From assembly GCA_051294905.1 (NCBI GenBank), contig CM119372.1, forward strand, positions 992,001 to 1,056,000: DNA of 64,000 bases, given 5' to 3'. The DNA comes from Botryllus schlosseri (taxonomy: Eukaryota). The position numbers and the translations under genes are program-made. Under the pieces are notes generated by a model. It ran no database searches. It had not been told where the DNA came from and saw only the letters and a program-made list of their open reading frames with translations. The first letter of the stretch is position 1. The number at the start of each line of letters is the position of its first letter. Shown piece by piece: positions 15,318 to 58,361 of this stretch.

Positions 15318-18300
15318 ACACACTTTTTGACGATGCTTTGGATTGATCGCGGCTTCATAGAAATGTCATTTCCACTAGCGTGCTAATGTACTACATGTTT
15401 CGTATGCTGAGATGCGATCAGTCGAGGTACTAGAATCATTGTACCCAGCTCTACTCCGTAATGAGCGCAAATTCTACACATGTTCTGGCCTGCGCTGTTC
15501 CCTCAACAAAAACATGAGAAACATCTACTACCAGCCCTTGATCAATAATAAACCACCTATTCTGTTATTGTATGTCGATCGTAGTGTATCTTCCCACTAT
15601 TAATATTCATCGCCCTGCAGTCACATCACGAATTCTCGTATTTCTCAAACAAGGCCTTTCACCGGGTCACGACCCCAAAAACAATCGTGTTTTCTCACTG
15701 GTTCACAATATAAGCGCACCCACTGAACTCTACGGTGTTAATTTGACATTCATGTCTACAATGCATAAGTACAAAGCTCGTTTACAATTCAAGGAATGTT
15801 ACGGCGTTCTTTCGCGAGACAATAATTGAACTCTAGCGAATTCCCGCTGTTTTTCGTGAATTGAGACTCCTTGCGAAAACACGATCTTATACGAGTAAGT
15901 GCGCATGGCAAAATACTTGTAAATGTGTAATTTGATTCAAAATCGACGTTTAGTATTCGAGTAACAGTTATTACAATATTATCTCAGTAATAATGACGTA
16001 TGGAAAGTTAAAATACGCGCATATTATGTGACCATGGCCACAAAGACAATAATTCCAGTTCTACAACACATTAAAGGATATGTTGGTAATTTTTTGACCG
16101 TTCCTATGTCATTTGTGACAATGTTGTGGGTTGGTCACGACGAAAATATCGAAACTATAATTCTCGTTGATACTATTGTAAGATATACGGGTCCGTGGAT
16201 ATACGAGCATGCGACACATGAACTTGAGGGTAAAATTACGGGTCAGGGATGGGCTTGGGATGGGATTGTATATAGGGGCGGATTATAGTTTGGTTGGGGA
16301 TAGGAAATATGTAAGGGTTCATTTCTGGGTTGCATGTGGGGTTAGGGTTAGTTTTTTGGTAATATAATCACAGGCTGAAGTGAAGCATACGAAAGTGTCC
16401 CATGGCCATTGCTCAACCCTACAACCATACAATGTTCTTTCCATTCTCTAATAGTTCCTGACGATTACACCTGACGAGTGTCACAACGGTTTATTTCAAT
16501 ATGAATATTGAATATATTACTCAATTGTTGTTGTTTTGGTATTACTGTCAGTATATTCTTTCTCATTATTCCTGGATATTCAATTTTATACTAAAACTAT
16601 GCAGCTCCAAGACACTCTTTCTAGTAATTCTAGATTTGCGTCGCCGGCATGAAAATTCGAGTATTTCGTACTCGGAAAAATCGTCTCCCACTAGTCTACC
16701 CGATTCATATTCGAGTACTCGAATCATTGTATGTCAATCCCTTTACAAACAGACTTTTGATTAGCTTCCATAAATGCATTGCACATTCAATTGGAAGTAT
16801 CGCGTTCCCTACGGATATACGTTTTTGTGGTCTTGAAAGGTTCTTTGCTCCCGTGAAATTGATTTGATCTTGATGCACATGATACCGCTAATTGATAGCC
16901 ACAACATTCACATAAAGCATGCACATATCTGATATTCACAAAAAATCAATAGCGCCTCACTATACGCGTCATTTCGCTTCGCGAGAAATCTATTATTTAA
17001 TATATTATTTACGTCTCATCAAGGTTAACCCTACATCTATACGCGCGATGAATTCCATTCTGTTGGTGAATGAAGGACGGTCACATCTTATCTAAATCCA
17101 CATCTCTATGCCCAAGCGCAATACCTTCCATACTATGGAGGTAAATCACTTTGAATCGCGCGAAAGATGCGTGTCACAATAACTGCCACCTTCGAATTCT
17201 AAATATACGTCGTCATTAGGGGTGGGCATTAGAGTATTAGAATCCGAATCCGAATAAACTAATCTGCGAGGCTCCCGCAAACCCCAAATTTTATTCGCCA
17301 AAATAAAATCTGTCCCGTTACATTGTAACACATAACTATAGAATACCGGTGCACAAAATGAACTGTACATCAACAAGAGTGTTAAAAGAACAGAACCAAT
17401 AGGACTTTCACCCAAAACGAAATGATAATTTTCAATATTTACTGCAAATTAGTCTGGCGTCCTCTGTATTGGTATGTGTGTCTTGTCCTCCAGCAAACAC
17501 CTGAGACTGGATCAGCGAAGCCCTGGAGTTCGTGTTAACCACGGTTCAAAACCACCGATGTAGCGCAAAAGCTACGACCGTTAGTGGAAATGGAATTTCT
17601 GCAAAGTCCTGATCAACCCGCAGAATTTTCACAAAGTGCAATGATCAAATAACCAAAATATATTTATTATGACGTATAGAACTGGCATTATTTCCTTTGC
17701 GATCGTATACAAGGTACACGACATCCACAGTTTTATAACGTAATGACTGATACTCGAATATACTCGACTCGAAGCGTCATATTCGCCTCTGATTCGATTC
17801 ACTCAGGTACCACATTTTGCCCAGCCATATATTCGTCACAAGTTCTTTTGCTTCTGTTTCCCTCTCCGTCTCTTTCCGTCTCTCGAACTATTCGAGTTTG
17901 GATTCGACTTTATATGATATACAACGTATTTCTAACTGGCTGTAACTTGACTTAAATGCGGTACTACACGAAGGTATTGCTTTTCTCCTTCTATTGATTT
18001 TCTCAAAGGCCAGGTAATAAACCCAATATGATTATAGGATGTAATAGAGCAATGTCTGTGCGCGATATCTGCATATCAACCGCACTGCCGCGGCACCATA
18101 TTACAAGCTAACGCTTCGGATTAGCTTCGTGGTGTCTTATTTACAAACAGAAAAATAGCGACAGCATACGGATTCACATCACAACACTAATTTATGATCT
18201 CAATTAGCCCTATTGATATCGATACTAATAAAAACCGATGACTAGCGCCTTCACGAATAAACTTGATATATTCGGCCAATATTCAAAATATATGGCATTA

Positions 18301-18379
18301 ATCTTAAGACGAATTTCCGAGACTTCAGAGCATTATTTGAACAGCTTTACAACCATTTCTATGCTTGGATATGAACATA

Positions 18380-18915: not shown

Positions 18916-18950
18916 TTGAAACTAGAAATGCTGCATCTGGACACCTGTAG

Positions 18951-21642: not shown

Positions 21643-21643
21643 G

Positions 21644-21678
<35 letters not shown>
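21643..21678 (+). repeat. (GATT)n microsatellite
   Basis: Tandem TTGA/GATT run. Confidence 0.9.
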
Positions 21679-21680
<2 letters not shown>

Positions 21681-22044
21681 GGTAAATTACACTAAAGAAA
21701 TTAAACCATGCACTAATTGTAGTTACATACCTAAGTCCTAACATCAACGGTGAGCATTGCTAATTGAATGCGTAAAAGGCCGCGAACGACATGACCACAT
21801 ATATGTTCAGTTCATATGTATATAGTTCACAGACAGAGCTATTGATTTACGGATTTTGCAGACATATTACCACTGTGCACAACGCCCAGATTTACTCTCC
21901 GCGCCTCCATTTTCTCTCAACGCCCCACAATCGCCCAGTTTGTTGCTAGCACTGTATCTTTATAGCATATTACATGTGGTGATTTGGTGATACGATTGTT
22001 GATATACAATGTTCTTCTCAATTCTCTGCTAGCTGTTGTCGATT

Positions 22045-22078
22045 ACCCCTGACGAGTGTCACCCGAAAATATTCGGGT
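22045..22078 (+). ncRNA. Minimal type I hammerhead ribozyme motif (Penelope-like repeat)
   Basis: ACCC-CTGACGA-G(TGTCACC)C-GAAA-ATAT-TC-GGGT. Stem I is ACCC/GGGT, the CUGANGA and GAAA cores are intact, stem III has a palindromic ATAT loop, and the cleavage triplet is UUC. Confidence 0.7.
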
Positions 22079-22328
22079 TCATTTCAATATGAATATATTA
22101 TTCAGTTGCACATTTATATCTATTACCTGTATATATCGTTTGTTACGGTTTTATCGTCACTAGTCCGTGCTCACGCTAACACTAGAAATGATATACTCGT
22201 AATGAAATAGATCCGAATATTTGGGCTGACAACTCGCCAGGCGTAATCGTCAGCAACTAGCAGAGAATTGGAAGAACATTGTATATCAGAAATCTTTCCA
22301 ATTCTCTACTTACTAGTTGCTGACGATT

Positions 22329-22362
22329 ACCCCTGACGAGAGTCAACCGAAAATATTCGTAT
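22329..22362 (+). ncRNA. Minimal hammerhead motif with degraded stem I
   Basis: ACCC-CTGACGA-GAGTCAACC-GAAA-ATAT-TC-GTAT. An inverted degraded copy lies at ~22210-22290, between this copy and the one at 22045. Confidence 0.5.
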
Positions 22363-24408
22363 TTATTTCAATATGGATATATTATTCGATAGTATATTGC
22401 AGTTCTGTACCTCTAATAAGCTCTTCAAATACTAAAAATATTATAGATGGAGTTATGAAACACGTTAGCTGTGTTCTCATAATAGATATAGGATATGCTC
22501 GCGTTCACACAGAACCTTTCGACAAGGTTCGCGTTCACACGAACCTGAACCTTTCAGAGGTTCACACAATTCCTACTGTTTCTACTAAACTGATACTGTA
22601 GACTGCCCTGACTCTAGAGCAGTTGTTGCAGGCGCAGTTGTTTATCAAGACACTGTGATTCCATTACAGATTAATTCGAACCACGATTGTCATAATCTCC
22701 AACATTTAGATCAGAAATCTACGTTTCAATCTGCACTAATGTTAAACGGAAATTAGAAAAATACGAATACTGATATGCGTCATAACCTATACTTTACAAC
22801 TACGGCGCTTGAAATGCAGAATCAGTTCTCAGGTGCGGGTAACTGTTTTTCGGAATCAGTACGATAATAACATTCGATTAATACAAATTATTCTAATTTC
22901 CGAGCAGCTTATGATGAATCGCGCTGTCGCAGTTGAATCTTGGATCGCCAGTGCCTCACCTATCCTACGCGCTATATGTTTGAAGAAAAAATACGGAAAT
23001 CGCATAATTATGCGTGTAAAAATGTCCACAATTAGTCATTCATGAGTATCCGTAGGAAAATACTAATACTCGTTGAAGATGTCCACAATTTTATTTGACG
23101 GGTGAGGAGGCACTGCTTAAAACCTGTCTCTCCCGAGTTCACGCCCTGAATGAAGTCATGTCATTCGCAAATCTATAATAATTTCTGTCTCGATGGTGAA
23201 ATGATGAGTAAAATTTCCGCCTCGCTGATAGTTATTAGCTACGGAGCTGAATTTCATAAAATACAGGCATAATTACTACGAGAAGAAAGTCTCTTTACTA
23301 TACACCTTCATAACTTCTCAGTGTGTGTATGCAACGCATTGTTGCTTCTTAGCCATGCCATCTTGTAAGTGATTAACATCTAAATTATCATTTGTCTTGA
23401 AAATGTTGGCCTGTGTTTACTCAAAAACTAATCTGATTATTAGCCGAGCAAAGCTAAGTCAATAAAGTACTAACCTAAAGCCTAGAAGATGACACTGATT
23501 CAGGAATCCATCGACTATCAATCACGGATGGATGGGCATACGAAAAATTGTCTTGAGACGATATCATTTAGCTATTAGTGAAGAGGTTTTATCGATGTGA
23601 TCGAACAGCTGGTTGCGTTTCTTGTTTATGATTCTCATTTCCTAGATATGTATTAGTTGGGCGTAGACATATTCCATGAATGGACTTCCAAATATTCTTT
23701 AGTAGTTTATGAAACCAAAAGTAAGCTGACTTTCTGCTATTATACTCATGTAATTCTGTCGAGTAGAATGCAGGGCTAGGAAAATTCGAGCACCTGAGTG
23801 ATTCGATTCTGAATCGAGTATTAGGATTCGAGTACGTAAAGTTCAAATATGTATCAGTACCTTTTATACCGCCACAAAGATTATCATGCCAGTACTACAT
23901 CACATTCAAGATAATATGGTGTTTTTCGACCATACCTATATTTCATTGCACTCAGTTACATTGGTGTGAGTTGATCGCGACTTCACAGATATGTCATTTT
24001 CACGAACATGCGTAGCTTTGGATGCTGTGATACGACCAATCGAGATTTCAAAGCTTCCATGTGGAAAAATAGCATCCAAACTATAATTCTTGCTCATTAA
24101 TTAATTCTTAGCGGAAAAGAGGCGTATCATTTTAGTGCTCGAAATATCATCTATCAGTACTCAACTCTAATCATTAGAATGAATACTCGATTCGGATAAG
24201 AGTGCTCGAATCATTGTGCGCTGCTATGGTAGAAAATATAGTTTTGGAACCAAAATATATATTCAGAGCTGGTCACTGGTTAGTAACGAAGTACTTCTAC
24301 TAACCTTGAGTAGATTTTACCTAGATAGCTGTGGTTTAGTTCAGACTACTTCTACTTCAGAATTCGACTTTTCTAGACAAAACAATGACCATAATACTTA
24401 ATGTTCTA

Positions 24409-25970: not shown

Positions 25971-28900
25971 AAACTTAGAGAGCCATACTAGGCTATACTC
26001 TGCGTCTACATCTTTCTTATCCAGTAACATATGCACAATTGCACATCATGCACTCATGGTATGCATATGCAGATTGTGTGTGTGTGTAGCCTATGAGTCG
26101 GTAAACCCTATATGCCGAAAAAACAAAAATGTGCTACGTCCATTTCAGGAATATTACCACGGCGAACGACGTAACACTCGGTCGTATATGTTTTGTCACG
26201 AAAAACTCACGATCAGAATGAAAGCTAATTTTTATATTTCAGGCCTTTCTGCAAAGATATACCGGTGGCGACCTAATAATAAAACCGTCTCTTTGAATGT
26301 GTCTAGATTCGACTCGCAAAACCGTTTCGATATTCCGCAATTCTGGCATCTTGAAAGTCGTCCAAGTAAAGCCTCGACGAAAATAGCTCCTCTCGACTTG
26401 TAATTCCCAATGAAGCAGTCTGACTTCCACGGGCATAAGCAGAGAACATCTCAACTCGACTTTATCCCGATGTCTGAGGTTTTCAGTGTGCAGGATCGGT
26501 TGAATAGGTACATAATTACCAAAAATCGACACGTTGATCCAACGGATGTTGTCTGGGTTCAGCAAATGGACGCTACATCCGAAATAATTGGGCTTCGTGG
26601 CACTGTGCCATATCGTCACATCTGCAGCATGGCTCTCGTCAAGCGCTTTTCGTAGGAGCCTTTGTTGACGACACAAAGTCGATATGATCCGCATCAGACA
26701 TGGGGCGCGGTTATACTGCAATAATGTAATCGATCACGATTATTTCTGAAAAATTTCGAATACAGCAAAATTTCACAGCAGCGTCTGCACATCAAGTTTG
26801 GCTCGATTCGCACTATGCATCGTAAGTTTACCTTTACCATCGAATAGCCTATATATTGATTGCCAGCGTGGGTAGCGCAGGTGGGAATCGTAGGATATTA
26901 TATTGTTTCTTGGAAAGATTCGAAGAATATATGTCGATTAATTATATACAGTATTATTAAAGTGTACGGAACTTATAGTCCGAGATGACATGACTCACCA
27001 AATTATACACATGATCGATGATCAGCTGTTCAATAACAATTGCTGACTGTATAAAGCTCGATTTCTAAGTAGGGGTATGGTGGCTAAACTCGTCTGATAA
27101 GCATAAATTTAGATACTTGGGTCTTTTCAAGTAAGACTTCATTTCGAACTCCAGTGGAAATACTTCATTGTGAAATATGCTGCAGACTGAGTTTAGATTT
27201 TTCGATTCGCAGTCTGGAACTAATCAAGATCAAATCTAAATCCTCACATGCGAATTCACGATACAGCGAAGCACGTACTCACCCTCCTAGTGCTGCCCGT
27301 TATAACACTTCCGCTAGACTTTTGTCATGATAGGAACCAATTATCAACTTGACACCTCGGGTTTGTAGCGTCATAACGTTCTGTTGAAAACATTTTGTTA
27401 TCATAAGTGTTTTGTCGAGTGGAGAATGACATCGCTGTTTTGTACTGTGGTCGGTATCTCGTTACTGTCGAGAGAATACGCGTGTTGACATTCAAATGAC
27501 TTTCTGGCGATGAATAGTGAGTTCCTAGAGACGCTAGTCCAAGATAGCATCGGCAAATCCCGGTGTCGATGTGCGACTCCGATACAGACCAGTGCTGGTT
27601 ATTAACCTGTGTGCCCCGAGCTAGTCTCAGTACCCGTGGAGGTCAATTCAAGACACACACTCGATCAAATCATGCACATGATTCGTGATGATACGCGCCT
27701 GTCTTGGACATCATTGGTTACATGCAATAGACGCGATCAGTAGTTGAATAGTGACTGTTGTGGCGAAATCGAAAGCCCATCATTACGAAATGCAAATACT
27801 GTATCTAATATTCATAGATCATGTGTATAATTAAACAACTGGTATCACGCTGTTGCGTTTCGACCGAACAAAAGCGATGGCACTTTCCAATATGAAGCCT
27901 CGTATTTCAAACTGGTGTCTGAAGTGAGCAGCAGAAGTCCCAGAGAAACTCAAACTCGTTCCGTCCCATCAGAGCACAGGCTCGGTCCAACTTCATTCGA
28001 GAGAGCGTTTGGTATTCGGTGAAGATTTCAAGCAATGCCAAGTGCTCACTGCTCAGTGCTCACTGCTCATGCTCAGTTTTGAGTGTCTCTAGTCTACTCG
28101 ATAGCTTTGACAGTTGATGACGGCTTGCAGACGGCGGCGGTGCTTTGTCTTCAATTACGTCAGCGGTCATCACATTATATTAGAATTATACAGTTTATTG
28201 AGTGACGAAATAACACCTATCTGTAATCATTGCTGTCCTTCGCCTTTACTAGTCAAGAATAGTTCGCAGCATATACTATTTATTTTATGCTCGGGAGAGA
28301 GAGAGATATATAATACGTGTCTTCCAAATTTAAAAACAATTTCACGGACTATTTGCCACACTTAAATATCGAATCGGTATAAATCTTGCGACCGAACAAC
28401 TCCGATTTCCCATTCTTGTTTTGTTGTAAAATAGGGTTATCATATTTGGGTGTCGGGAAAGGAGGACACTTTTTCAAAATTTTCAAACTTAGAATACCGG
28501 AGGGAAATCTTGAAAATATGGCAAAGTCGGTTGACTAAAAAAAGGTCAACTTTCTCGCTCAGCGCCCAAAATGCAGTTTTTCGTACACATCATCAGTTGA
28601 ACAGCTTCTTGGAGGTACAGAACTTCAATATACTATTCAATTGTACATTATCAATTGGGTGACAAAAAAAACTTTCCGGCTCAGCTTCCGAAATATAGCC
28701 GTCTGGGCGTTACTTCTTCAGTGCTCATTTACTGTCTATCAGTCGAACTTTGTCCTAAATTTAACCAAAATTCTCAAAAAAGAGGACAAAATCTCAAAAA
28801 TAAGGACATTTAGGCGTCCTCGGAGCACATTATTAAAAACCTCAAAAATTAGGACGTATGCGATGGTAACCCCAATATACAATGTTGTTTTCAAGTCTCT

Positions 28901-31802
28901 ACTAGCTGCTGACGAGTGTCAGTCGAAGATAACAGGATTTATTTCGATATTCATTTTTGTATACATGGGTTGTCTCGGCCTGTTGCTACTGAAAATTTAC
29001 TCGTAGCCGCGATGCAAACATATGCCAAAACTACTTTCTACTTCGCAAAATATATAGTGCAATAAGAACGTTTTGCGTATGGAATTGTCAAGTAGACGTG
29101 GTGTAAAATAACACCGTTAGCGTATGTAGTGTATATAGGCAAAACCTACTTGGGTACTCCGAATAAGTAGAGTATTTCGTTACTCACCACCTCTGGCGGT
29201 GCGAAAACGAGTTGCTTGAAACGAAGTATCTAGTCGCCGAGTTCGTCACTACTAGAGATAGAATATGTCCACCGACACTACTTCCTCACGTGATACTACT
29301 TCTGCAAGGCAAAACTGGGCCTAGAATACTCACTTGCAAATCGCTACTTGCAATCGATTGGAAATTTACTAGGTTACTACTACTACTCGAGTACCAATGA
29401 TGACTACTACGACCTCCTCTGCCTGATAGTCCCGTACCAGCAGGTTGCACACCCCTAGACTATTGCCCCCTAACAGCCTCAATCGACATAAGGAATCTAC
29501 CGTTCTCTTATAATTGCGAATACAACCGGACTCATTTCTGCGCAAATTTCCTCTATCGCGCGAAATAAAATTTCAAGTTGCACAATGCACATGTCACATT
29601 TGAAATCATTGACCCCACATGAGCAGCGTGGGTTCAAGCAGAGTCAAACAGATTTAAAATTGTACAACTTAGATTAGAATTGTAGCTACACAGGTTTTTT
29701 TCTAAATGAGATTGAAATTAGAATTACAGAATTCCTAAAAACTTGGAAATTGGATGGAATTCCGATTTAGAAAGAAATACAACAGAAATCTAGTGATAAG
29801 CGTGAAAATGACAAATGTCTGTTCAAGTGTACAGTGTACACTAAACTTGGCTCGATTTGCACTGTAGCAATTTCACAAATTGGGTTGGAATTAAATTATA
29901 AGCATTTCAATCTAATTTTTGTGCACTAGAATTTTCCAGTTGTACAAATCTGGATTCACGTAGCGACGCAGGTGAGCATTTCGTTTCAATGGTTCCTCGT
30001 CACAACGAAAATTTCTCGTTAACCAGTGGGTTATTTAGTCAGTAAATAATCAGGCATGCGACATATGTACCGTAGCAAGTCGACTCTGCCGCAAGAGTTG
30101 CATTCATCACAATATCAAGTGCCAAAGTACATATATTTTATCGTAACTCAAAGTATTTCCAACTGTCTATTACACTCTTAACAAAGCGTCATTGGAAATC
30201 CGATTGGATTCAAACAAATACAAAAGTTGAAGGCAAAGTGTGAAGTGGCAATGGCAATACACGCTTTGAACAGTATAACACGAGCAATGTTACAGGTAAC
30301 GACGACATACGACACACAGGAAATATATCACTCTAATGGGAGATTTCAGATTTGTGCCTGTAAAAACCTAGCTAGTTTGTAAATTACAGTGATTTAATCA
30401 TTCCAAAACACCACAGAATTGCAATACAATGAATAGATAGGAAGTAGTTGAATCGACTAGTAGCAATCTTTGAATCAAATATCTGTTATGTTCTTCATCT
30501 TGTTTGAACAATAACTCATACGACGAGGTTGCAATATGAAATCAGTATATTATCAGCAGAATAACTTCAAGACAGGCGACACGATCCAGAGTTCAGTTAA
30601 AACGAAAGACGGTAGACAACAGAACACAGGGTATAAATACGAAGCACGATACACAAGGAAATAATGATTGGCAGTAATTACTAATCCTAGACAAATAAGA
30701 GACAAACGATACCAACGTAAACTGCACGAACATAACAATATCTACCTGGGCCAAGAACAGATAAATAAGAGACAAGTAAATTGACTAGTGAAAAGTGAGA
30801 AAACCTCCACCATTGCTTTCGGCCAGCTCTCACCAAGTGCTAGGCCATAGACCTAAAATTTCAAGAACTGGCAAGAAAAATTCCAATTCTCCCAATAGCG
30901 GTGGATAACAGAACAATAAATACATTTCTCTTAAATGCTTCTGCCAACGCCACTTTACCGAATTTGGCATTATACCGTATTACATTTGCACGACTGAAGA
31001 GCTTCTTTGAGGTACAGAACTTCAATATACTTTTCAATTTGTAAGACTGTAAATCATTTCACGAGCGTTATAAGTATAACAGACTCAAGCTTAGTTTAGT
31101 AGCCCAAAGACACACCAACTGTTGTACCAAAAATTTAGTCACTGTAGTACACCCAAACCCTATTTTCATACATTTGTGGACAAAAATCAGGAAGAACTAA
31201 AATTGGTTAACAGTTGAAGTGCCAGGGATTACCGCATTATTCTACTGAGTAAAACCATGGCGGCCCCATCCCCTCCAGGGACTATTTTATAGTAGCAAAC
31301 ATGGATGATGGTCAAGTAGAATAGGAAATAGTCCACAGTAGAGTTGAGATAGTTGCCAACATTGGCGCTACTCAAGTAGAACAACAACCTGTTACAGTCA
31401 AGATAGTATGTCAGCCGACATTGGTTCTACTCAAGTCGAATTGACAAAATAGATGCACCCATGGCCACGATGTAGCGTATGGATATTGGATTGGCAACAC
31501 CAGCAGATATATTAATGTCAAAAATTTAATCGGAGTAGACTTGGACTAGAAAATTTCCAGCTCTTCCACATTAGATTAGAATTAGAATTAGAATTACAGT
31601 TAGTTTTGTTTCCATATAAGACTAGAACTAGAATTATAACAGCACATATTTTTACAAATTAGATTAGAATTTAACAATTGCTGAATTTGCAAAAACTTGG
31701 ACATTGCATGAAATTTAGTTTATATCAAATCAGAGTTAATTTTCATTGAGCACAGGAATAACAAATGTCTGTAAAACAAGCTTGGCTCGTTCCGGACTAT
31801 AC

Positions 31803-32086
31803 CAATGGTTCTCAATCTGGGGCGTGAAAGCGTGTGAGGGGGGGCAGGGTTGTGAAGCTGCGGTGTACTGAACAGAAATTTCACGCTCCGCACCATTTAC
31901 CTCTAATCCATAGTTATTGCTCTGTGTCTCCCTGAGTCCAATTTCATATTTGTGAATTCTCTGATCAACAGTCACAACTTTCCATGGTTGCATTTTGCAT
32001 TGTACGATATGGCTAAAAGGGGGGCGTGAAATATTTCACTATCATTATGGGGAGGCCGCATGTCTAAAAAAGTTTGAGAACCACTG
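31803..32086. mobile_element. hAT-type MITE
   Basis: CAATGGTTCTCAA...TTGAGAACCACTG flanked on both sides by ACTATAC. Confidence 0.75.
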
Positions 32087-32092
32087 ACTATA

Positions 32093-32758: not shown

Positions 32759-32969
32759 TACAGTTCTCCTGGAATACCAGAGATTAGACTAGAATTAAAA
32801 TTACATCATTCAAACATGGCACACATTAGATTAGAATTCGAGCGAAGAAACATTACACATCTTGGATTACCCACATTTAGCTCTAATTAATCTAATTCGG
32901 TGACCAGAATTATTTAGTTGTCCAAGTCTGCATGAAAGTGCTATATTCACACATTTGTAAAGTAAACCA

Positions 32970-33873: not shown

Positions 33874-35216
33874 TTTATTTGAAAAAACGGTCTGTTATGT
33901 ACAACAAGTGAAAGTACGGTATAGATTTAGAAATGATAAATTTTTAAAGATATCACATTTTTAAATTTATTTCATGGCTTCATTTAGAGCGCTCATGGTC
34001 TCCAGGTTGGAAACCTCTGATATTGTGATATATAATAGTTATTACCGGATAACACTCCCAAGTAAAAAAGAATAAAGGAATGAAAAATCATCTCTTTCGA
34101 CTATTGAGATTGAGATATCAATTCGTCCTTAGCATGCATCAACTATTATAGCTTAGCTTACGAAATTGGATTATGAGCACGATTAGTAGCTATTCGAAGC
34201 CTTTATACTGACATGGGAAACCCTAAAAATCTGCAAACATGCGGCTTCAAGGACACAAATATTCTACGTCCTCTTCTTCTTTGCTCAGTTAGTTTGTTGC
34301 AAACGTCCTTTCTTTGCTCAGTTAGTTTGTTGCAAACTGCTAACCAGTGCCGAGTGTGTCGATAATGTCATTGTTGATACTCAGGTATCGCAGGTGTCAC
34401 TCAGATCAGTATCAATTTAGTAATATTTTCATCATTTCTAAACACCACGAAACTGTCGGGTAGCCGGCAAGATGCTGTTCCAAAACTGGTTCTAATTGCG
34501 CTAATACAGTAATTTGCACAAGTCTGCTAAAATGCCATTTTCAAGCTAAGAGGTCTGCTGTATCGTGTATCCTTCAACATAATTTCTGCAGGCACACAAA
34601 GCAGAAGTATTATGTGCATTGCACTGCACGCTTTCAGCATAAGGTTTAGTACTTGTATCAGCACTGTAACGTACTTCAAATTCTGCGAATCGATATAACG
34701 TGTTCCCATCGCAGTCAATCACAAGCTGTAGTTTGCATAAGTGACTATGAAGTCGGTGGTTTAACCTCAGCATGTATCAAGCGCTCTTCCTCCCTCCTGA
34801 TGTCGTGTAAGCTAAGTAGTTGCTGGTTGTATTGGATACGGCATGTTCGACTACTAATTTTCATTTACGTACTTCGATGGTGTCCCAGTAGCACCCCGGT
34901 GTCTAGATTTCCATGAGCGCTTACTAATAGTTTGCTGAAGCGCTTCTTGGAGGTACAGAACTTCAATAATAGTTTGCTGTCTAATCAGTATCGAATTAAA
35001 AAATACTCTCATTCTCACTTTTAATTTTGTTGACTCAACCATCATCAACACAAAGGATAACTCACGCACCTTTTTAATAATAATTCAAAAAATGAAGTTC
35101 AAATCGGATAAAAAAATTCAAAAAATTTGGAGTACGAGAAAATGAGTTGGAAACTTTGACACGCAATAACCGTTCCCTCGACACCCAACAGAAGAATGCA
35201 ATATGAAGTGAAGCGG

Positions 35217-41346
<6,130 letters not shown>

Positions 41347-41670: not shown

Positions 41671-41721
41671 TATTGCTTCAATATTATCTTGGTATAGCAG
41701 TGATGTGCGTTGGACGGACTC

Positions 41722-43743: not shown

Positions 43744-44329
43744 GACTCGGATAGGGTTCGGACCGGATTTTGCACAATCTAGAGACATTCGGATCGTATT
43801 CAGATTCTATTGCAGATTTTGTTTCGGAAATTTTCGGATAGTTGTAACTTTTGCTTTGGATAATTTTGGATAGTTCTGACCAGGCGTGACTAAACATATT
43901 CTGATAGGACTGATAGCACTCTAAACCTGTTCTGTCACAGATTCAAGCATATATGAATCTGCTAACCCTACCTTTGGCCTTTGTAAACACTACTCTGCTC
44001 AGATGCACAATTTAGGGTTGCCATATTTTGGAATAATAGTGAGTTGATCGAAATTTAAAACGGACGATTTTGCAATATTTACTTGAAGTTTTATTTCGTT
44101 GACTAAAAAAAGTCATCACTTTCATTCGACTCCCGAATGACCCGCTCGAACGTCCGTATCACCTATTTCACCACATTTATGCCGATTTTTAGTTGACTCT
44201 GTTCATCATCCTAGCTGTAAACGCTGTAAATGAGGACGAATTGCCAAAAAGGAGGACATTTAGGCGTCCTCGGAGGACATTTTCAATTTCCTCAAAAAAT
44301 AGGACATAGGATTATCATCTAACACAATA

Positions 44330-44790
44330 CGGTTCGGTTCATCAGCAATTTTTATCAGTACAATATATCACGATATTTCAATAGGTATAGAAGGTAAAGA
44401 AAGGAGGATGGCGAGACGACTTGGGGTGAAATCAGACACCCACCTTGGCCTACGCGATTTAAAGAGGAGGCATGCACACTGAATGAAAAGTAAAAGAAAA
44501 TAACATAAAAAGAAATCGACAAAATGAGGTGGCATGTCACGGAAGGCGAGATCGAAAGGTCAGGTCGTGGTCCGGTAATCTTGAGGGCGGATTAGTAGGC
44601 CTATTCATTTAGTGAAATTGCTTGTACTTCTACTTGAATGTGGACATGCTCGTCGACTGTCGGATAGCCGGCGAGATATCTGTTCCGTGCACACGTCAGG
44701 CCCGGCATATTTGAAGGATAGATCGATGATCTTTTAGGTCGATCATATGATAATTGGACTCGGGAGCTGAGCCGGCAAGTTGACATTTTT
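44330..44790 (-). mobile_element. 5'-truncated LINE (degraded ORF2 C-terminus plus 3'UTR)
   Basis: Reverse complement of ~60700-61110, for example TTGAATGTGGACATGCTCGTCGACTGTCGGAT. Confidence 0.8.
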
Positions 44791-44819
44791 TTAGTCAACC
44801 AACTGAAAGTGTGAAAGGA

Positions 44820-46705: not shown

Positions 46706-47273
46706 CAGGGTTGTAACCAAGTCACAAGGCTCCGAGTCACAAGTCAATTTCACTTTTATATTTTTGACTCGAGTCAAGTCGAGTCATTTTCAATTCCCAC
46801 CGAGTCAAGTCCGAGTCCAAGTCAGCGAACAGAGGACCAAGTCCGAGTCATGGTATTATGACTCGAGTCCGAGTCCAAGTCATTGTGTTGACTGCTCAGT
46901 TGCCAGTTAAAGTCTTCCTAAATCCACTTTTCTAACTCTGTTTGGTGATATTGAATGGTTCGCATTTATGATATATCAATTTTCCTCACTTTTAGCAGTT
47001 TCTCGTCGCATTTTCAAGCACCAGTACCAACAAACGAAATCCCAATAATGTGTTGGCTTCGAAATTACAATGAAATGTCGGTCTTGGCCGTCTTAATCTC
47101 GAGTCAATGACTTGCTTCGAGTCATGCGCAATGACTCGAGTCCAAGTCGATTCAATACACAGATTGACTCGAGTCGAGTCATGTCCGTATTTTGAGAAAA
47201 TGACTCGAGTCAAGTCGAGTCATCCGAAAATCGTGACTCGAGTCGAGTCATGACTCGAGTCATTACAACCCTG
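46706..47273. mobile_element. hAT-type MITE with GACTCGAGTC subterminal arrays
   Basis: CAGGGTTGTAA...TTACAACCCTG with a perfect 8-bp TSD TATAGGAG. Confidence 0.92.
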
Positions 47274-47506
47274 TATAGGAGTGGAGTTTCGTGAGGTGCG
47301 AAATGTTATTGTGGTCATGATATGCATGGGACTGACGACGAATACCTTATGATATATTCACAAAATCTACTAATCTGCATAATTGGTTCCATTTCCAGTA
47401 GTAAAATGTTTTATAAATGTGTAATAATATAATATACACTTTTGAAGAGCTTCTTGGAGGCACATAACTTTAATATACAATTGAATAGTCATTCATATTG
47501 AATGGA

Positions 47507-47550
47507 ACCCGAGCATTTTCGGCTGACGCTCGTCAGGGGTAAGCGTCAGC
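47507..47550 (-). ncRNA. Minimal type I hammerhead ribozyme motif
   Basis: Minus strand reads GCTGACGCTT-ACCC-CTGACGA-GCGTCAGCC-GAAA-ATGC-TC-GGGT. Stem I and the core are intact, and the 5' flank GCTGACG is complementary to loop II CGTCAGC. Confidence 0.7.
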
Positions 47551-48286
47551 AACTAGTAGAGAATTGGAAAGAACATTGTATATCAACAATCGTATCACAA
47601 AATATGACGTCACCGGCATTAAATTTCAAACAATCGGGGCAAAGAGAGCGCTTAAGCTCAATGTACTATTATCCTTTTATACCTTTTTCATATTAATCGA
47701 ATTCGAATGTTTGCTTAATATGATTCCATATCTATTGAATAACGTCCCTCGGGATTCAACTTCCTTGTCACGTTTGACTCTACGTTTGCACAAAACTTGT
47801 AAAATGCAGCAAAAAAGACTGCGTAATTCTCTTTTGCATAGCAACAGATTGTCTTCGTGAATTTCTCCGATTTACGTCAACTCTGCAAAGCGCACGTCAA
47901 TGTTTTAACTGATTTACTTGAAATTTCGTGGAGAAAGGAACACGAATTTTACAATCCTCTTGATACCTTCCGGCGTCGTTTATACGGCCGACTGTCGCTA
48001 AATAAATAGAGTCGCAGCACGCAACTTTTCATCACACGCAGTGACATTGCTTCAGCAGATTAGTAATAACGATATTGTCATGAGACGAGTCTAGCTTATA
48101 TTGCGTCGTTGTGACAGTATGTTTTACATTTGATCAATATTATATATCTTGGTGTAATTGTGCTCAGACTAGTGAATTGCTAGTGATGGGCAATTTGTTT
48201 ATAGCAGGAGAACGCCAACGGGTTTTTGTCAGTACAGAATTCAGTAAATGGTTGAAATTCTCAGTCATAAAAAGCAGGGTTGTAAC

Positions 48287-50411: not shown

Positions 50412-50830
50412 GTTGTAACGAAGTCACAAGGTTCCGTGTCACAAGTCCATGTCATTTTTATAGTTTTGACTCGAGTCAAGTCGAGTCATCTTCGATTCAC
50501 CACCGAGTCAAATCCGAGTCCAAATCGGCGAGCAGAGGGTCGAGTCCAAGTCATACTGTTATGACTCGAGCCGAAGTCGAAGTCATTATGTTGACTGCTC
50601 AGTTAAACCCACTTTTCACAATTTTGGTTGGTGATATCGAATGGATTACTAACATACTTATTCTCATCACTTTTAACATTTAGCTTCTGGTCGCATTTCC
50701 GGGTACCAATATAGTCTACTAATAGACGAAATACCAAGAGTGTGGTAACTTTGCTATTCTTCGAAATTACTATGACGTGTCGGCCAAGCTCTGTACCTCA
50801 AGATTCCAAATGTTCAGTCCTGAGTAAATC

Positions 50831-50864
50831 CCCCGAATATTTTCGGCTGATACTCGTCAGGGGC
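50831..50864 (-). ncRNA. Minimal hammerhead motif, with a degraded plus-strand partner at 50961-50994
   Basis: Minus strand reads GCCC-CTGACGA-GTATCAGCC-GAAA-ATAT-TC-GGGG. Confidence 0.6.
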
Positions 50865-52824
50865 AATATTCAACAACCAGCAGGCCTATACAAAATTGGA
50901 AAGCACTTTATATACGCATCACCGAATATGACGTCAATTCCCTTATAGTTAGTGACGATTACCCCTGACGAGTTTCAGTCGAAGAATTCGGGGTGAATAG
51001 TCTATATTATTCAATTGTATATTGAAGGAAGAGGTTAAACCCTGTGGAACTAACTATCTCGTGATTCTGATAAATTAAGGTGTTTAGTTACCAAAAAAAA
51101 ACTCCAAACGTCACTAAAATAACCCCTTAGTTGCTCATCAGTCGTAGATTGGATTTGCGTGGGCAATATAACGCTATGCGTTTTTCGATATCACCCGTAC
51201 GTAGTCAATGCCTTATTACTAAGAGTAGCCTAATTGAAGACGAATTGTAACGGTCAAGACTGAATATTTACAGAAGACAAACGCAAGGAATACGTTTTTA
51301 GACTTTGAATAATACGCAGTAACCAATAGTCGCGTCGAAAGACTTGCTATGCTTAAAGATTGCGGCATTTTTCTATACGCATTCCTTTGAATAAATTTCG
51401 ATAGCAATCGTGTAATTACTCACACCTGGAGTCTTGAGTGCGCTGTTTAATCTTCGAGTAGATTAACGTGGTGCTACTCACTGCCTTGTATGACTAAAAT
51501 GCGAACGGTATTTTTGTTCGGTATCCATTTCGTCACCACCGTTTTTAAACGTTATTAACGTGATAAGTATCGTAACTTGTCAGCTATCAGGTTATATATA
51601 GACGATGTGTTATATTTTCAGCCGGACTTGACACTGAATAATTACGAGTTCTAAAATAAGAGTCTCCACGACACAGGAAAGAATTTTGATCATACATATC
51701 ACAGCGTACACACCTAGCTATATGATACGATGCGTATTCCTAATATTGATAGTCATATTGCTCGGCTGTAAATAGCATACAAACCAATCTACGATAACAT
51801 CGTTGATCGCGAAACATGTGCTAGTTTATCACCGCCATATATAGTTGTGTCTGCACATGACCATGTGAAACTGAGACTGTCTTATTATTTATCTTGACAC
51901 GATTTCAATGGCACTTGTAGGTAAGGGTGACTCGCTACATTGGTCATATCATTATTTAACAGGTAACCGCTTTGGTAATCGGCTGTAATTGTGTGTTTTA
52001 TAACTCAACAGTGATTAATACGCAGCACGCTTATCAACTCACAGTAAAAGTACCTCCTTCACGAATTTGTATTACGAATTACTTCGTTTTAAGATCACAT
52101 ATGTTATTCCCGTCTCTTTTTATGTGTGTCAAATTAGAATGATCTGACTATAGAGTCGGCCTGGCAATGAATTCACGCTAGTTTCGTATTAGAACGATTT
52201 GCAGTCATTATTCAAACGATTGTTATTTACCCATAGGGTATGATACCGAAAGTTACTAAGCCTCGAAACAATATCGCGACTTTGTATAAATGCCGATCCG
52301 TTTCCAGTAGATAGCACAAAACGTACTGATGGTATAGGTGCGTCCACCGCTAGTATTTAGAATCATTCTCAACCATAGATTGGGAGAAGCGTATGACATT
52401 TGAGTCGAAAGTGTAAAATAATTGAAACGTATTTTTTTATAGACACTTTTCAGTTGAGTTGAGTTTATGGTTAATAATTTTATCCTTTCAAAATCGCGTG
52501 CGATTAATGATAGGAAGGTTTCAAAACGTCTTGGTGTAGTATTTGAAATCAGACACCTACCCGGACCAAGACTATGTAAATAAGGTACGTGCACAGTGCA
52601 CACTGAATGGAAAGTAACAGAAGACACCATAGAAAGGTCAAACGATGAAAATGAGGTAGCATGTGTCGGAAAGGCAAGATCGATATATCCGATGGCCCGG
52701 TATTCTCGATTGCTGACTAGTATTTATTTGCGGAGGCATCAAATCTTTTGTACTTGAATAATCCAAGTCATTGGTTTCTAACTTTTTCAGAATATAAATA
52801 TATCACCATCAATATAGAATCGAC

Positions 52825-55800
52825 ATGTTTCAAACCGCTATGTGCAGTAGGAATGTATTTGCCGGCGTACTAATCGCACTGTCTTTGGCTGCTTTAGCAG
52901 CGAGCATGCCAACCGTGTGCAGAGAGCCTTGTCTGCGAACGCGATACGGCGACTTCGTGGAGAGATGCGAAGACATGGGATCACCGATGCAAGGTAAAAT
53001 TTACCCCTGACTGCAGATGATAGCCGAAAAGAAGATTTATTTCAGTATGAATACATTAGTCAAAGGCAGATTTGCGCTATGTTAGCTTATCTATGTGTTG
53101 TATGGGGCATGGGCTTTCCAGTCAGAGTTGGAGAGAGAACCGGAAAATATTCATCTCTTTCAAATTGGATCAGAATTAGAATTACTGAGTTGACAAAAAC
53201 TTGGAAATTGAATTCCATTTCGAATAAGAAAGAAATATCAATTCCTACCATATCACATTTCATTCTCATAACAATGGCGATGACAAATGTCTGTACACCA
53301 AACTTGGCCCGTACCCCATACTATACAGTTCACCTGTCGCATTTTCAGGAAAACAATAATTTAGAATTTATACTAAAACTAAGCCTAGAATTTTTTTCAC
53401 AAATTAGGTTAGAAGTAGACTACCGGCATTTTACTCTAATTAGCTCTAATTATCTAGCTGTCTAAGTCTGTCTGGCATTGATGATTAATTTGAACCGATT
53501 ATTATTTCAGAATACTGCGAAATTTGTAGAAATCACGGTTTCTGTCCTGAGTTACCGGCATGGGCAAGACCGGTTTTGCAAGGTGAGTGATAAGATATTA
53601 CTATGCTACGCATTCGTCTGTAGCGATAACTTCCGATTAACAGCACAATTCCAACACTGTTTGATGGGCATCGAATGAATGTCGCACCCTAAGATAAGAC
53701 TTTAATTAAGTTCCGATCAAAACTCACTCCGTATGATTGTATCCGAATAACTAGTGACGCAGATCGCACATAGTTAGCGATCATACGAATATTTCACTGG
53801 AACTCGGAAAACATGCGTTTCAATATCCGCTGAATACATGGAGTGATCCCTTTGGTAGCTTTTCCGAATAAGATTCGAAATAGGATTAGAGCTACATAGT
53901 TTTATTTCCAAATTCTAATGGCATTCGAATTACTGAATTTGCAAAATCAAATAAGAGTGCATTCTCATACGCCTGAGAATGGCAAACGTCTGTACACCAA
54001 GCTTGGTTCGTTTCGTACTATACAGCTCTCCTGTAGCATTTTCAGGAAAACCAGAAATCGGATGATCTGCGTTGCGTTATAATCAGTCTAATTAGACAAC
54101 TAGAATCATCAAGCGGTCCAAGTGTTATCCGAAAGTGAACGGCGATCACTTGGTGTGAGCCGTGTCGCGAACCGAAACTGATTGCGCACCATATCAGCTA
54201 TCGCAGCTATTCGAGCGAAAGCGAAAAAGCAAATAAAATCAGATCAGAAGCCTATATGGATTAATGGCGACTCGTTAACTACCTACGAAACTGATTTGTT
54301 GCGACATCGTCAATCATTGTAACTTATCCTTTGATATGAAGAATCGAGTAGGTATTTGGTCTGCAATCGATGAGATATGTTGTTGCTTTTGTGATCATGG
54401 TGTTTCGACTACTGTGTACAATAGGGTTGTTCAAAATTACTTTTCTCTCAGATTTGTGCGGCTATTAGCTAAAATTGTTAGGTTGGCTATAAAAAATTTG
54501 GCTCAATTCTAACTAGAAGTAAAGGTATCAAAGCTGTCAAATTTTGAATTCAATACTAAAGTCAAAAAAATTGTTAGCCTACTAACCCATGACATTGTTA
54601 TACTGGCTGCAAAAAATAAGCAAAATAGATTTGACTCGATTCCAAACAGTCGAAGTGTACTTATTCGAATTTTTCATTAATAATTCTAGGATTGCACACC
54701 GTAAATACTATTGTCTCAAATTCAAGATTTTCTACTCCAATAACTTCGCTTTTACCTGTTGGAACACCATAGGCCGGTATTCCTTTTATGATTTCCGGCA
54801 GTCGACTTATAGCACGGTCCACATACGCGGATCATATATAGCTATGAGACATAGACTATATACGTTCCAATTTCAGTCGGCTGGAACCCGTTCGTTGCCA
54901 AGACCTGCGACCATTACCCTCCCAGCGTTGTGACCGAATGCGACTCTGACTATCGTGTGGGCTCGACGTGCAATCTGCGGTGTAGCGAAGGATATTTGCC
55001 CGCGCCGGAATTGTACAGAGGATTCGGAGGAGAACACACACACGACGAACTGATGTCATTCAAAACGACTTGCAGGTAATGCTTATTTTGATTCAGTGTA
55101 CATTATGAATAGATCTTTATGCAAGCAACGTCATCTTCTATCTTACAATGTAGGTACAAGCGAAGGCTTTAAGAAATCGAATTCTATAGAATTTGTGATA
55201 CAATTGTTGATATACAACATTGGGAACATTCTATTTCCAATTCTCTACAAGTAGCTGACGAATACCCCTAACGAATTTCTGCCGAATATATTCTGGTTCG
55301 GTTCAAAATAAATATATTATTCAAAACAAATGGAAGTAAATCAGCTCCATACGTTGGTAGTTGACGCCTTACCAATTAACAAACTGATAACGATATAGCT
55401 GCATTTTCAAACACTGCAGAATTGTACAACCTACTCATCTAGTTAAGTTAACGGTCGACTAACCACTATTTTTTATGAGTAGCTCTTATTGTAGTTGAGG
55501 ATTTTGAAAAGTGAGTAATTCTTGAGAGGTGCAATGGTCAGTACCGAAGTACTTCTACTTTTCGAAGTACCTCAAGTACTTCAACTTGATTTTGTCTACT
55601 CCGGCTATTTGTTCAAGTGGTAATGATTTTAGTTTTTTCAGCAAAACTAATCTGAGACATTATGATAGGCATACTACGCTATCGAGAAGTCCGACTGGAT
55701 CGACCTACCCGTACCTAGTACCTACCTACACGCATAATAACATTTCAATAACGTTATTTTGTACAGTTATTCTCTCGATGGCTCATCCGTAGAATGGAGT

Positions 55801-58361
55801 TCGAGCAATTTCTCTTGCGTCGCAAAGCAGGACATCATGGACAAGTTCTATCCCGACACTATCCAGGTCTGTTGAACACACAGGTCTTTAACGGGGCTGG
55901 GAGTTAGACTTGAACTCTTATTATTAATTTATGCTAAAATCCCACAAGAATTCCAAAACTTTGCAAAACGGAATGACCGCGTTCTATCAAATATTTCATC
56001 GGGCATAAATTAAAAGTCTCCGATGTCACATGGTTTCTGATCGTGCAGTTCTTAAAACTCCACTTCTGCGAACACCCTCTTTAACGCGGCCTGTTTACGA
56101 GATATTCATTCGAAACAACGAACGTTCGCGAGCGGTCTTACTTGACCTCAAAAATGCTGAACAGAGATTTTTTGCTATTCATCCGAGTGCATTTACGCAT
56201 AGATATCCACTGCGTGAACTAAATACCACTGAATTTGGATAATCTGTTCCCCCCTCGGATACTCACCAACATCAAAGAAGGTTTTCAGCTGTAGCTCGTC
56301 CCTGTATGCAACACCACTCTACCAGTCTTGTGCAAAATTCAATCACGTATATTAGTGTCAATACATGAGATAAGATATCGTCTGATGTTCTACTCTCTGC
56401 TCTCAAGATACCGTTACATTATTTTTGGAATGACCTTATATTATTCATTTAATTTCTAATTTTCCACGATGCTGCGTCGTATTTTTCCTACGTTTTCTTC
56501 AATTTATTTATTCTTAGCTAATCTTTAGTTTTGGAAGTAACGACTTCTGTAATAGATGCTCGTCTTTGAAGACTCTGTTATATCGAGCCTCCCGCCCATG
56601 CCATACATTTCTATAAATCGCATTTCGGCGAATCGAATTTTTGTTATGTATGCTATTGAATAGTGTATTATTGTATATTGAAATATACCCAAATATTTTC
56701 GACTGACAGTCGTCAGGGTAATACTACAATATGAATATATTATTCAATTGTATGTTGAAGTTCTGTACTTCCAAGAAGCTCGTCAAATATACTTAATACT
56801 CATGCGTGTTACTGATTTGCATGATTGACAAATAATGATCCTCTCTCAGATGTTCGGACCGCCGCTATTGCCCCCTAGCCCATATCCAGACAGCTACGTA
56901 ATCGACCTTTTCGACGATGAGCTAACGGCTGTGAGTGAAGATGATAGCGAACAATCGGGAGATGACGTGAGTTGGAGAATGAAATTGAAATCAGCAACCG
57001 GGCATCTTTGGATAGAGTCGCGCCTTTGCTTCCGCATGTCGATACGGTTTTTGATGAATTTCGCTTCTAAGTCCACATTCATTGAAAATTATCAATTTAC
57101 CTCGAGACTTTTTGTGTGACCCTTATCAAGAGATAACGGCAGACTTGGACTAGATAATTCTAGTTGTCTAATTAGACTAAAGGGAAATACCGATGGTCTA
57201 ATACTAATCTAATTTATGAAACGTTTCCATGCTCTAATTTAATTCTAATCTAATTTCTGGTTATCCCGAAAATGTTACAGGAGAACTCTACAGTGCAAAA
57301 ACTGCGTAGCTATAATTCTAATCCTAATCCAACTTGGAAAAGTTGTTAACTATAATTCTAATTCTAGTCTAATTTGGTAAAATCTGTGTAGCTATAATTC
57401 TAATTTGATAATTTGGAACAGCTGACTTTGGTTAACGGCACAATAATCATCCTAATAATAAACATCGAAAACGCGTGACAATCACATTAAATATTGGATG
57501 GAAAGATTTGGGACATGCATCAGTATAGAATAGAATAACGAAATAATATTATTACATTATATAGCAACTCCTTCTGTTGGAATAAATCTGGATGACATAA
57601 TTTATTAATTTATTTAACTCCAATGCAGATGAATGAAATGCAGACCTGACTTTCTGAATATCACAGAGAATTCTCTCATTGCAGATGGTCCCAGACGACA
57701 GAAGGACTCTCGGACTCTTCAATTTCTGTGGCAGTGCTTGCGCCAGGGCTGGGAGAAGTTACAAATACGGCTGCTCGCAAGTGGGAGGTATGAATAACAT
57801 TAGGCTTTTTTTGTAAAGACGGCGGAAGAATAGCACATAAGAAGCTTTTTGGCCGTAGCTATAAATCGACAGTGACATTCGAAATAGGATAGACCACTGT
57901 TTCTTACCCTTACCCATTTTATCGCTGTTTATCAAGTCTACAGTTGGCACCAAATGGTTGCACGATAATTGAGCCAAATTTGAGTTAAAACCGGTCTAAA
58001 GAGGGTCTGCAAAGACATAAAGATTGAGAACCAATGCATTAGAACATGGATTTCACACAGACATTGCAAATGAGGGTGACTTCTGCTGTGTGAGTCGGCT
58101 ATAGGCTACGTGTCTTGTCGTCACGTTTAAGAACCACAGACATATAGCCGAATATCATTTACAGTCACTCATACGTTCATACGTTTATTTTGAAAGGAAT
58201 ATATACATTATACATACATGATGTGTTCTTTTGTGCGAGCCATGGCGAATTACAGTCTATTTGAAGGCTTATAAATGAACAAATTCTCGTTTTCAGCATA
58301 TTTCTGCATCGTTTGCCGAATGCGAAGACTCTGCGCGACAAGTCGCTCTTTCTTGGGTTGA
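52825..58361 (+). CDS. Secreted 274-aa precursor: signal peptide, 6-Cys module, Sushi/CCP domain, acidic spacer, RR site, cationic 6-Cys C-terminal peptide
   Basis: Exons are 52825-52993, 53511-53582, 54877-55075, 55767-55866, 56850-56966, 57685-57787 and 58297-58361, all GT-AG with consistent phases 1,1,2,0,0,1. The Sushi signature is CDHYPPSVVTECDSDYRVGSTCNLRCSEGY...TTCSYSLDGSSVEWSSSNFSC. Joins after exon 4 are inferred from splice signals and frame. Confidence 0.8.
54419..54765. mobile_element. Degraded partial copy of the CAGTAGGG fold-back MITE (intron 2 of the Sushi gene)
   Basis: TA|CAATAGGGTTGTTCAAAATTAC, plus internal CACCGTAAATACTATT and CAATAACT.CGCTT blocks. Confidence 0.6.

Follow-up and report, generated by a model that had tools for sequence, protein, structure and literature searches.

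Decaying repeats with a reduced hammerhead motif in the ascidian Botryllus schlosseri, probably derived from the 3′ end of a Penelope-like element

Introduction

A stretch of 64,000 nucleotides of the ascidian Botryllus schlosseri (GenBank assembly GCA_051294905.1, contig CM119372.1, positions 992,001 to 1,056,000 of the forward strand; here called the window, with positions counted from its first letter) contains a dispersed repeat that carries a type I hammerhead ribozyme motif. The locus raises two questions, namely which kind of element left these copies and whether the motif belonged to a working ribozyme. Hammerheads of Penelope-like elements (PLEs) are already known as a class. Minimal type I hammerheads are described in the pseudo-long terminal repeats (pLTRs) of metazoan PLEs, including those of Ciona and Oikopleura (PMC4209133), and nine type I hammerhead loci are described in Didemnum (PMC8704543).

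The repeats are best explained as neutrally decaying copies of the ~230-bp 3′ end, pLTR plus optional tail, of an ascidian PLE (probability about 0.8). Membership in the PLEs is inferred from structure. The copies would be either 5′-truncated products of an autonomous PLE or members of a non-autonomous family that consists of the pLTR.

Detection and abundance of the repeat

The original prediction, made from the letters of the window, had named ten places, and all ten carry the repeat. A search with nhmmer found 11 hammerhead-region copies in the window, the eleventh at ~53007(+) (E=0.0064). A covariance model built from seven copies recovered ten at E<=6e-4, three of them independent of the model, together with one weak unrelated match. 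The pattern of the core with G-N7-C and N4 matched five times with at most one mismatch, compared with a mean of 0.05 and a maximum of 1 in 100 shuffles. Four further pieces consist of the tail only. Altogether the family occupies 1,490 bp or 2.3% of the window (hand-set intervals), and the copies are 63–95% identical to their own majority sequence. The predicted repeat is real, but its unit had been drawn too short: the full unit comprises ~230 bp (47445-47676), and the tail-only pieces belong to the family as well. Four other CTGANGA...GAAA matches (2272 and 6220 in Bcl-2 coding sequence, 58369 and 28596) were judged by eye to be chance.

Reads or contigs of one DNA run and three RNA runs were aligned to positions 47270-47870 at 80% likeness. 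The element is matched by 41,537 contigs. The summed contig depth, which does not equal copy number, reaches 2.6 million on the element and 10–29 on its flanks. The family is very abundant genome-wide.

Structure of the unit and insertion signatures

The most complete copy, the tail-only pieces and the head-to-head pairs define the ends of the unit and the target-site duplications (TSDs).

47445..47676, minus strand: most complete copy, ~232 bp, with 5′ extension, hammerhead region (C3 47536, C17 47511) and 3′ tail
47444-47432 / 47689-47677: possible TSD of this copy, 9/13, P=0.07
28600..28644, minus strand: tail-only 5′-truncated insertion, 13-bp TSD 11/13, P=0.0008
30997..31036, minus strand: tail-only 5′-truncated insertion, 13-bp TSD 11/13, P=0.0012
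34938..34966, minus strand: tail-only 5′-truncated insertion, perfect 13-bp TSD 13/13, P=0.0005
22187..22294, minus strand: inverted copy without tail, one half of a head-to-head pair; mutated core
22293..22425, plus strand: tail-bearing member of this pair (C3 22333), core intact, stem I broken
22176-22188 / 22426-22438: probable 13-bp TSD around the pair 22187-22425, 10/13, P=0.016
50822..50936, minus strand: copy with intact core (C3 50860, C17 50835), palindrome and a stem I of 3 bp; faces 50934-51027 head-to-head
50934..51027, plus strand: degraded partner of the preceding copy; the junction overlaps the TGACGTCA palindrome at 50929-50936
56649..56723, minus strand: 5′-truncated inverted copy, intronic; core letters present, G10.1 changed, U17, pseudoknot strand absent
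56727..56783, plus strand: tail-bearing 3′ piece, head-to-head with 56649-56723; TSD not found

Seven pieces in the window share one 3′ tail end. The alignment has a sharp edge at 47441, with loose ends in 180 contigs and 98 RNA reads and a fall in depth from ~1.4e5 to 18–89. The 5′ ends are ragged, the contig depth dropping stepwise toward 47690, and most tail-less copies stop 30–45 nt before the tail end. In two of the three head-to-head pairs (22187-22425, 50822-51027 and 56649-56783) the tail is confined to one member; the third pair is rearranged. A change of strand was found at 8 of the 15 DNA-contig joints listed (15 of 51).

Direct repeats of ~13 bp flank four of the seven tail-bearing units tested (13/13, 11/13, 11/13 and 10/13, P 0.0005–0.016). 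One unit is doubtful and two are without a TSD. In one case the TSD surrounds a whole inverted pair (22176-22188 / 22426-22438), and this pair is thus a single insertion event. The tail-side TSD copies at 34925-34937, 30984-30996, 28587-28599 and 22426-22438 all start with CA[A/G], which suggests a target preference or priming microhomology. The tail end has neither poly(A) nor a microsatellite, and the fold of the tail is unremarkable (z -0.99 and 0.13). Tandem Repeats Finder reported no array at any copy in the window. Two listed contig joints connect the 5′ part to the tail end and may represent rare tandem units. An ATG shortly after the predicted cut site opens ~18 codons up to the tail end.

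Several details of the unit are recorded here as observations. A tail piece at 50787-50803(+) lies just left of the inverted copy 50822-50936, and the plus-strand partner stops at the start of that piece; the arrangement at 50787-51027 suggests that the insertion was rearranged. Just upstream of the putative pseudoknot strand described below, a pyrimidine tract with CTAG at its end (47551-47580, minus strand) resembles a 3′ splice site (cf. the intron of Drosophila Penelope). No spliced reads were found there among the joints listed (15 of 51). The TATA-like letters at 47673-47683 share positions with the likely TSD and are not claimed as a promoter. An endonuclease remnant upstream of copy 47536 is improbable, the frames there having no Pfam match.

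The hammerhead motif

Read as a type I hammerhead, the majority sequence has a complete core, a 4-bp stem I and a palindromic AAUAUU stem III. From 5′ to 3′ the motif consists of a 7-nt strand, a 3-nt linker, one side of stem I (4 nt), CUGACGA, G10.1, a 7-nt loop, C11.1, GAAA, a 4-nt loop, U16.1, C17 and the other side of stem I. This block order is that of an ordinary type I hammerhead, and a non-circular permutation (cf. PMC10085705) was discarded. The core CUGANGA / GAAA / UH in a three-way junction is present in four exact copies and in the majority letters. Besides the copies 47536, 22333 and 50860 listed above (named by the position of C3), the core is intact in one more copy.

21978..22114, plus strand: copy with intact core (C3 22049, C17 22074), 4-bp stem I, palindrome and 5/7 pseudoknot pairs, without tail

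The open-ended stem I beside the cut site has 4/4 pairs in 22049 and 47536 and 3/4 in 50860. No compensatory changes in stem I were found among the window copies. Majority letters at variant positions were taken from the 40 variant rows listed (of 138). At 47513, 47514, 47528 and 47543 they make up 92%, 71%, 97% and 99% of the contig depth. They restore the AAUAUU palindrome, the loop of the consensus and a mismatch opposite G10.1; the oddities of copy 47536 are therefore private.

None of the 11 window copies is fully intact, and 22049 and 50860 come nearest. The four cores named as intact in the original prediction do have all catalytic core letters, but in 22333(+) just 2/4 pairs of stem I remain, and in 47536(-) the palindrome is gone. 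The core, a stem I of at least 3 bp, G10.1-C11.1 and the palindrome occur together in 22049(+) and 50860(-) only, each with 5/7 pseudoknot pairs. The cut predicted after C22074 is correctly placed, and AAUAUU in the majority sequence agrees with the proposed dimer-type stem III. The check with curated hammerhead models had a different outcome: Rfam matches no hammerhead family in the window even at E<=10. Descriptors demanding a helix II of several base pairs would presumably miss the motif too. Counts of animal hammerheads may accordingly be underestimates.

Stem II and the upstream strand

In the majority motif stem II is a single base pair. Minimal PLE hammerheads differ: their helix II comprises several base pairs, and A9 is usually followed by an extra base. 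The 1-bp stem II had been taken as established for hammerheads of PLEs and retrozymes. The published motifs lend no support to this; in them, helix II has at least 3 bp in 56/56 rows of Fig. S3 (PMC4209133). There, Cervera and De la Pena describe helix II as larger than usual and helix III as the minimal one. Minimal variants without helix III or tertiary contacts are described in PMC7761336. The two strands that may compensate for the short stem II are located in copy 47536 as follows.

47544..47550, minus strand: 5′ strand of the putative pseudoknot (GCUGACG), 3 nt upstream of stem I
47522..47528, minus strand: loop II of 7 nt, with G10.1-C11.1 as its only closing pair; its sequence complements both the upstream strand and the core

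The strand upstream of stem I can pair with loop II over 7 bp, one of them G-U. A 7-bp complement arises in 0.3% of random 17-nt stretches (chance 0.003). As judged from the sequence, this putative pseudoknot, which the original prediction had missed, would probably explain the 1-bp stem II. Pseudoknots are described in all three hammerhead types, with at least 4 Watson-Crick pairs between loop II and the extension of stem I, and a cleavage rate of >1.2 per minute is given for a type II metagenomic hammerhead whose stem II has 1 bp and whose pseudoknot has 6 bp (PMC3088659). The window motif resembles such pseudoknotted hammerheads (Perreault et al. 2011, PMC3088659) in its 1-bp stem II and in a putative Watson-Crick contact of 6–7 bp that would replace loop-loop contacts. 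Unlike the 1-bp example, which is type II, metagenomic and fast, it is type I, belongs to a probable animal retroelement end and has no monomeric stem III. Its putative pseudoknot also lacks covariation.

With the motifs of PMC4209133 the window family shares type I topology, a 4-bp stem I, a vestigial palindromic helix III (dimer) and G10.1-C11.1, as well as dispersed single motifs, opposite-strand pairs and high copy number. In contrast, helix II of those motifs has 3–8 bp, usually with an unpaired base after A9, and they are described as having no tertiary contacts. A palindromic very short stem III, PLE association and dimer cleavage are shared with the variants that PMC6765202 and PMC7761336 cite from Lunse, Weinberg and Breaker 2017. 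The literature found contains neither a pseudoknotted PLE hammerhead with a 1-bp stem II nor this ascidian family, and Lunse et al. 2017 or the Terminon paper may cover it.

The upstream strand allows a second interpretation. Its CTGACGA is an exact duplicate of the core heptamer, spaced 13 nt, and loop II is thus able to pair with the core instead. The predicted energies of the core-loop hairpin (-5.4 kcal/mol) and the upstream-loop helix (-7.8 kcal/mol) are close, and the minimum free energy (MFE) structure contains the core-loop hairpin. Furthermore, the copy at 28909 has a deletion between the repeats. In copy 47536(-), which has lost the stem III palindrome, the upstream/loop II helix reaches 9 bp and extends into A9/G10.1 of the core. 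Together with the lack of covariation, these features would fit a folding switch or a by-product rather than a stabilising pseudoknot, with the ribozyme mostly off or vestigial. We regard this as possible, if doubtful: no other stem II can form, and a loop II contact 5′ of stem I is reported to rescue hammerheads with a short stem II (PMC3088659). In addition, the majority base opposite G10.1 (99% of depth at 47543) does not pair with it, so that G10.1 remains available to C11.1.

A switch and a pseudoknot could also coexist. In a somewhat more speculative and rather unlikely combination of both, the doubly reduced hammerhead would fold only when the 7-bp pseudoknot and the dimer helix form together. 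Loop II would then toggle between blocking and bracing the core. The motif would be a protein- or dimer-gated switch and the first hammerhead with a metagenomic-type pseudoknot in an animal retroelement. Were this true, tens of thousands of copies would be missed by Rfam models. In any case, the family joins two reductions that were published separately, the 1-bp stem II with a (putative) pseudoknot and the dimer-only stem III. With its separable pseudoknot, dimer helix and decoy hairpin, the ~45-nt motif is a compact construct for studying what gates cleavage.

The family-specific pattern gave no matches in metagenomes or phages, one match in prokaryote genomes and two in viral contigs, none of which extends into the motif. 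Scans for the architecture gave 4 viral and 82 metagenome loci, which were taken as chance. Their 58 distinct contexts include three with 4-bp stem I-like pairing and none with a convincing pseudoknot.

Origin and proposed mobilisation

The insertion signatures are comparable to those of PLEs. In Adineta, Pen2a has a 218-bp pLTR, an adjacent inverted pLTR, a 9-bp TSD and an optional tail of 31 bp, and its open reading frame (ORF) has the first 22 codons within pLTR and tail (PMC3846280). An inverted 5′-truncated copy and a one-sided tail of 30–40 bp are given as general PLE features in PMC8557442. The window family shares with endonuclease-positive (EN+) PLEs (PMC3846280, PMC8557442, PMC11167929) a terminal unit of ~200 bp, the inverted 5′-truncated partner, an optional tail of 30–40 bp and a TSD. 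As in those elements, the hammerhead adjoins a possible ORF start. It differs in having no attached ORF and in a TSD of ~13 instead of 8–10 bp. The original prediction had offered a PLE pLTR or a retrozyme as the source. TSDs, 5′ truncation, head-to-head pairs and the one-sided tail favour the PLE pLTR, whereas the dispersed or inverted copies and the lack of arrays argue against a tandem retrozyme.

Mobilisation would most likely proceed as follows. The protein of the presumed PLE would bind the element RNA and nick the target, giving ~13-bp TSDs that tend to begin with CA[A/G]. Reverse transcription would begin at the tail end or ~30–40 nt further in. Synthesis would mostly stop early, often with an inverted 5′ piece added. 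The hammerhead of the source element would be of type I, with a complete core and a 4-bp stem I; its stem II would have 1 bp, and its palindromic 6-nt stem III would require a dimer. Between loop II and the nucleotides directly 5′ of stem I, a 7-bp helix is probable. Any cleavage would probably be weak, dimer-dependent and assisted by the element protein, as in the PLE of the anole, and insertion would probably not depend on it. In the anole PLE, the hammerhead requires protein for cleavage and is dispensable for insertion in vitro, and no read ends at its cut (PMC11167929). By analogy, it is taken as the best model for the working of this ribozyme.

Several results weigh against this reading. 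Fold energies were computed for the majority sequence, with pseudoknots outside the folding model. The majority sequence folds into decoy hairpins (-12.2 kcal/mol), and the nested monomer hammerhead is predicted at +5.2 kcal/mol. The AAUAUU helix of the dimer contributes -0.2 kcal/mol, compared with -11.2 kcal/mol for a competing inactive dimer. According to these predictions, cleavage by naked RNA should be poor. Covariation of the putative pseudoknot in seven copies is not above that of shuffles (two-sided changes 265/500, score 257/500), and in the window copies differences are more frequent at its positions (31/131) than in the flanks (110/847). RNA ends do not pile up at the cut site in 2,478 bulk reads (~6% of the run) and 7,681 single-cell reads, which is weak evidence on catalysis either way. 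In line with the original prediction, no ORF for a reverse transcriptase (RT) or GIY-YIG domain was found in the window: a Pfam scan of 269 of the 319 stop-to-stop frames of at least 55 aa gave no match. Three of the other 50 frames were scanned separately; most of the rest come from duplicate arms or simple repeats. The putative N-terminal peptide, used as a profile query, likewise linked no RT or GIY-YIG to the family. This search yielded 4 of 1,874 candidates, all 72–156 aa long and without Pfam domains, the best being a spurious frame through another element copy and its flank. The 18-codon frame is unremarkable by chance. Finally, the TSDs of ~13 bp exceed the 8–10 bp of rotifer PLEs.

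Two short frames of large ENA contigs (P0123 and P0124) carry the tail-encoded peptide behind another upstream part; they may belong to a related subfamily or species.

The repeats could alternatively be dispersed monomers of a non-LTR retrozyme, i.e. of tandem hammerhead repeats with circular RNA intermediates. The unit of ~230 bp is within the retrozyme range of ~150–300 bp (PMC7761336), dispersed monomers exist, and retrozymes have been argued to derive from PLE pLTRs (bioRxiv 10.64898/2026.07.22.740005). Like the non-LTR retrozymes of these two sources, the family is non-coding, carries a type I hammerhead and is apparently PLE-related. This origin is nevertheless unlikely. No window copy lies in a tandem array. 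The insertions end at a fixed tail and not at the cut site, and they are 5′-truncated and head-to-head. Dedicated RNA was not seen either: bulk RNA depth is equal in both orientations and 98% of the reads continue into unlike flanking sequence, which fits passive transcription of scattered copies, unless the library is unstranded. RNA joints such as those of circles were absent among the joints listed (15 of 51), in libraries that are unsuited to small circles.

The machinery of long interspersed nuclear elements (LINEs) also yields ~13-bp TSDs, 5′ truncation and 5′ inversion. The repeat could accordingly be the 3′ tail of a LINE or short interspersed nuclear element (SINE) moved by an enzyme other than that of a PLE, its fit to the hammerhead being a relic or coincidence. 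The missing PLE ORF in the window frames and the peptide search and the lack of an Rfam match would agree with this. The combination of core, G10.1-C11.1, stem I and palindromic stem III in the majority sequence makes it very unlikely, as does the tail, which has no poly(A) or microsatellite. Moreover, a one-sided tail is described as a PLE signature (PMC8557442, PMC11167929).

Decay of the copies and the host gene

The core is no more conserved than the flanks (16/117 vs 110/847 differences, p=0.88), an outcome that was one of the two parts of the refutation set by the original prediction. The core decays as fast as the flanks and is thus not under selection after insertion. Neutral decay is expected of dead-on-arrival copies. 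In our view it speaks against a function for the host but does not count against a ribozyme of the source element. Among the read variants C>T and G>A dominate (45/95 places in one read set).

An intron-bearing gene on the plus strand spans ~52826-57100 (exons modelled by eye). Its third exon matches Sushi at E=0.013 and 16.3 bits, under the cut-off of 20.7. The original prediction placed two degraded copies in introns of a Sushi gene. The intronic position stands, but there are three hammerhead-bearing copies and the Sushi match is weak. Besides the inverted copy 56649-56723, the introns contain the first two copies below; the other two lie elsewhere in the window.

55189..55324, plus strand: degraded copy with mutated core, sense, in the intron after the Sushi-like exon
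53001..53073, plus strand: very degraded copy that starts a few bases past the first intron donor
16427..16619, plus strand: copy with the GAAA region deleted; a degraded tail (16577-16619) follows an insertion
28875..28950, plus strand: copy with a 13-nt deletion between its two CTGACGA direct repeats, core mutated

Domestication of some copies as host regulators, for example by cleavage of intronic pre-mRNA of the Sushi-like gene, is extremely unlikely although three copies lie in introns of one gene, two of them in sense orientation: all three are mutated at core or stem positions, core conservation does not exceed that of the flanks, C>T and G>A dominate the read variants, and intronic copies are expected of a family that makes up 2.3% of the window. 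There is no sign of domestication, and nothing points to a host role.

Other features of the window

An intronless LIPT2 gene is located at ~32973-33695(-), within the stretch 32973-33824(-); its best named relatives are from ascidians, first Styela clava (58%), followed by Ciona, Phallusia and Clavelina, which would place the host probably close to Styela. Exons of an AAA_18 gene, which we take to be adenylate kinase 6-like, lie at 39895-41274(-).

The window begins with a near-perfect inverted duplication (1-3658 / 4834-8491; 3,659 bp, 99.6% identical, 1,175-bp spacer) that runs off the window start. Each arm contains a Bcl-2-family exon (1972-2448(+) and 6044-6520(-), Pfam E=3e-15). Either a very recent duplication or a fold-back in the assembly could account for the region 1-8491.

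Other repeats include MITE-like families (miniature inverted-repeat transposable elements) with long internal or short terminal inverted repeats at 12430-13070 and 32085-32764, and at 28427-28873, 44228-44812 and 62110-62277. The element at 28427-28873 contains a tail-only piece of the hammerhead family. A 129-aa frame at 60492-60881 has no Pfam match; by eye it resembles what we assume to be the C-terminal end of an L2/CR1-type LINE protein. A repeat family starts just after this frame (60955-61107), with copies at 12075, 18756 and 20836, and may be the 3′ UTR of the LINE-like frame. At the far end of the window, a fibrinogen C-domain exon is present at 63793-63999(-).

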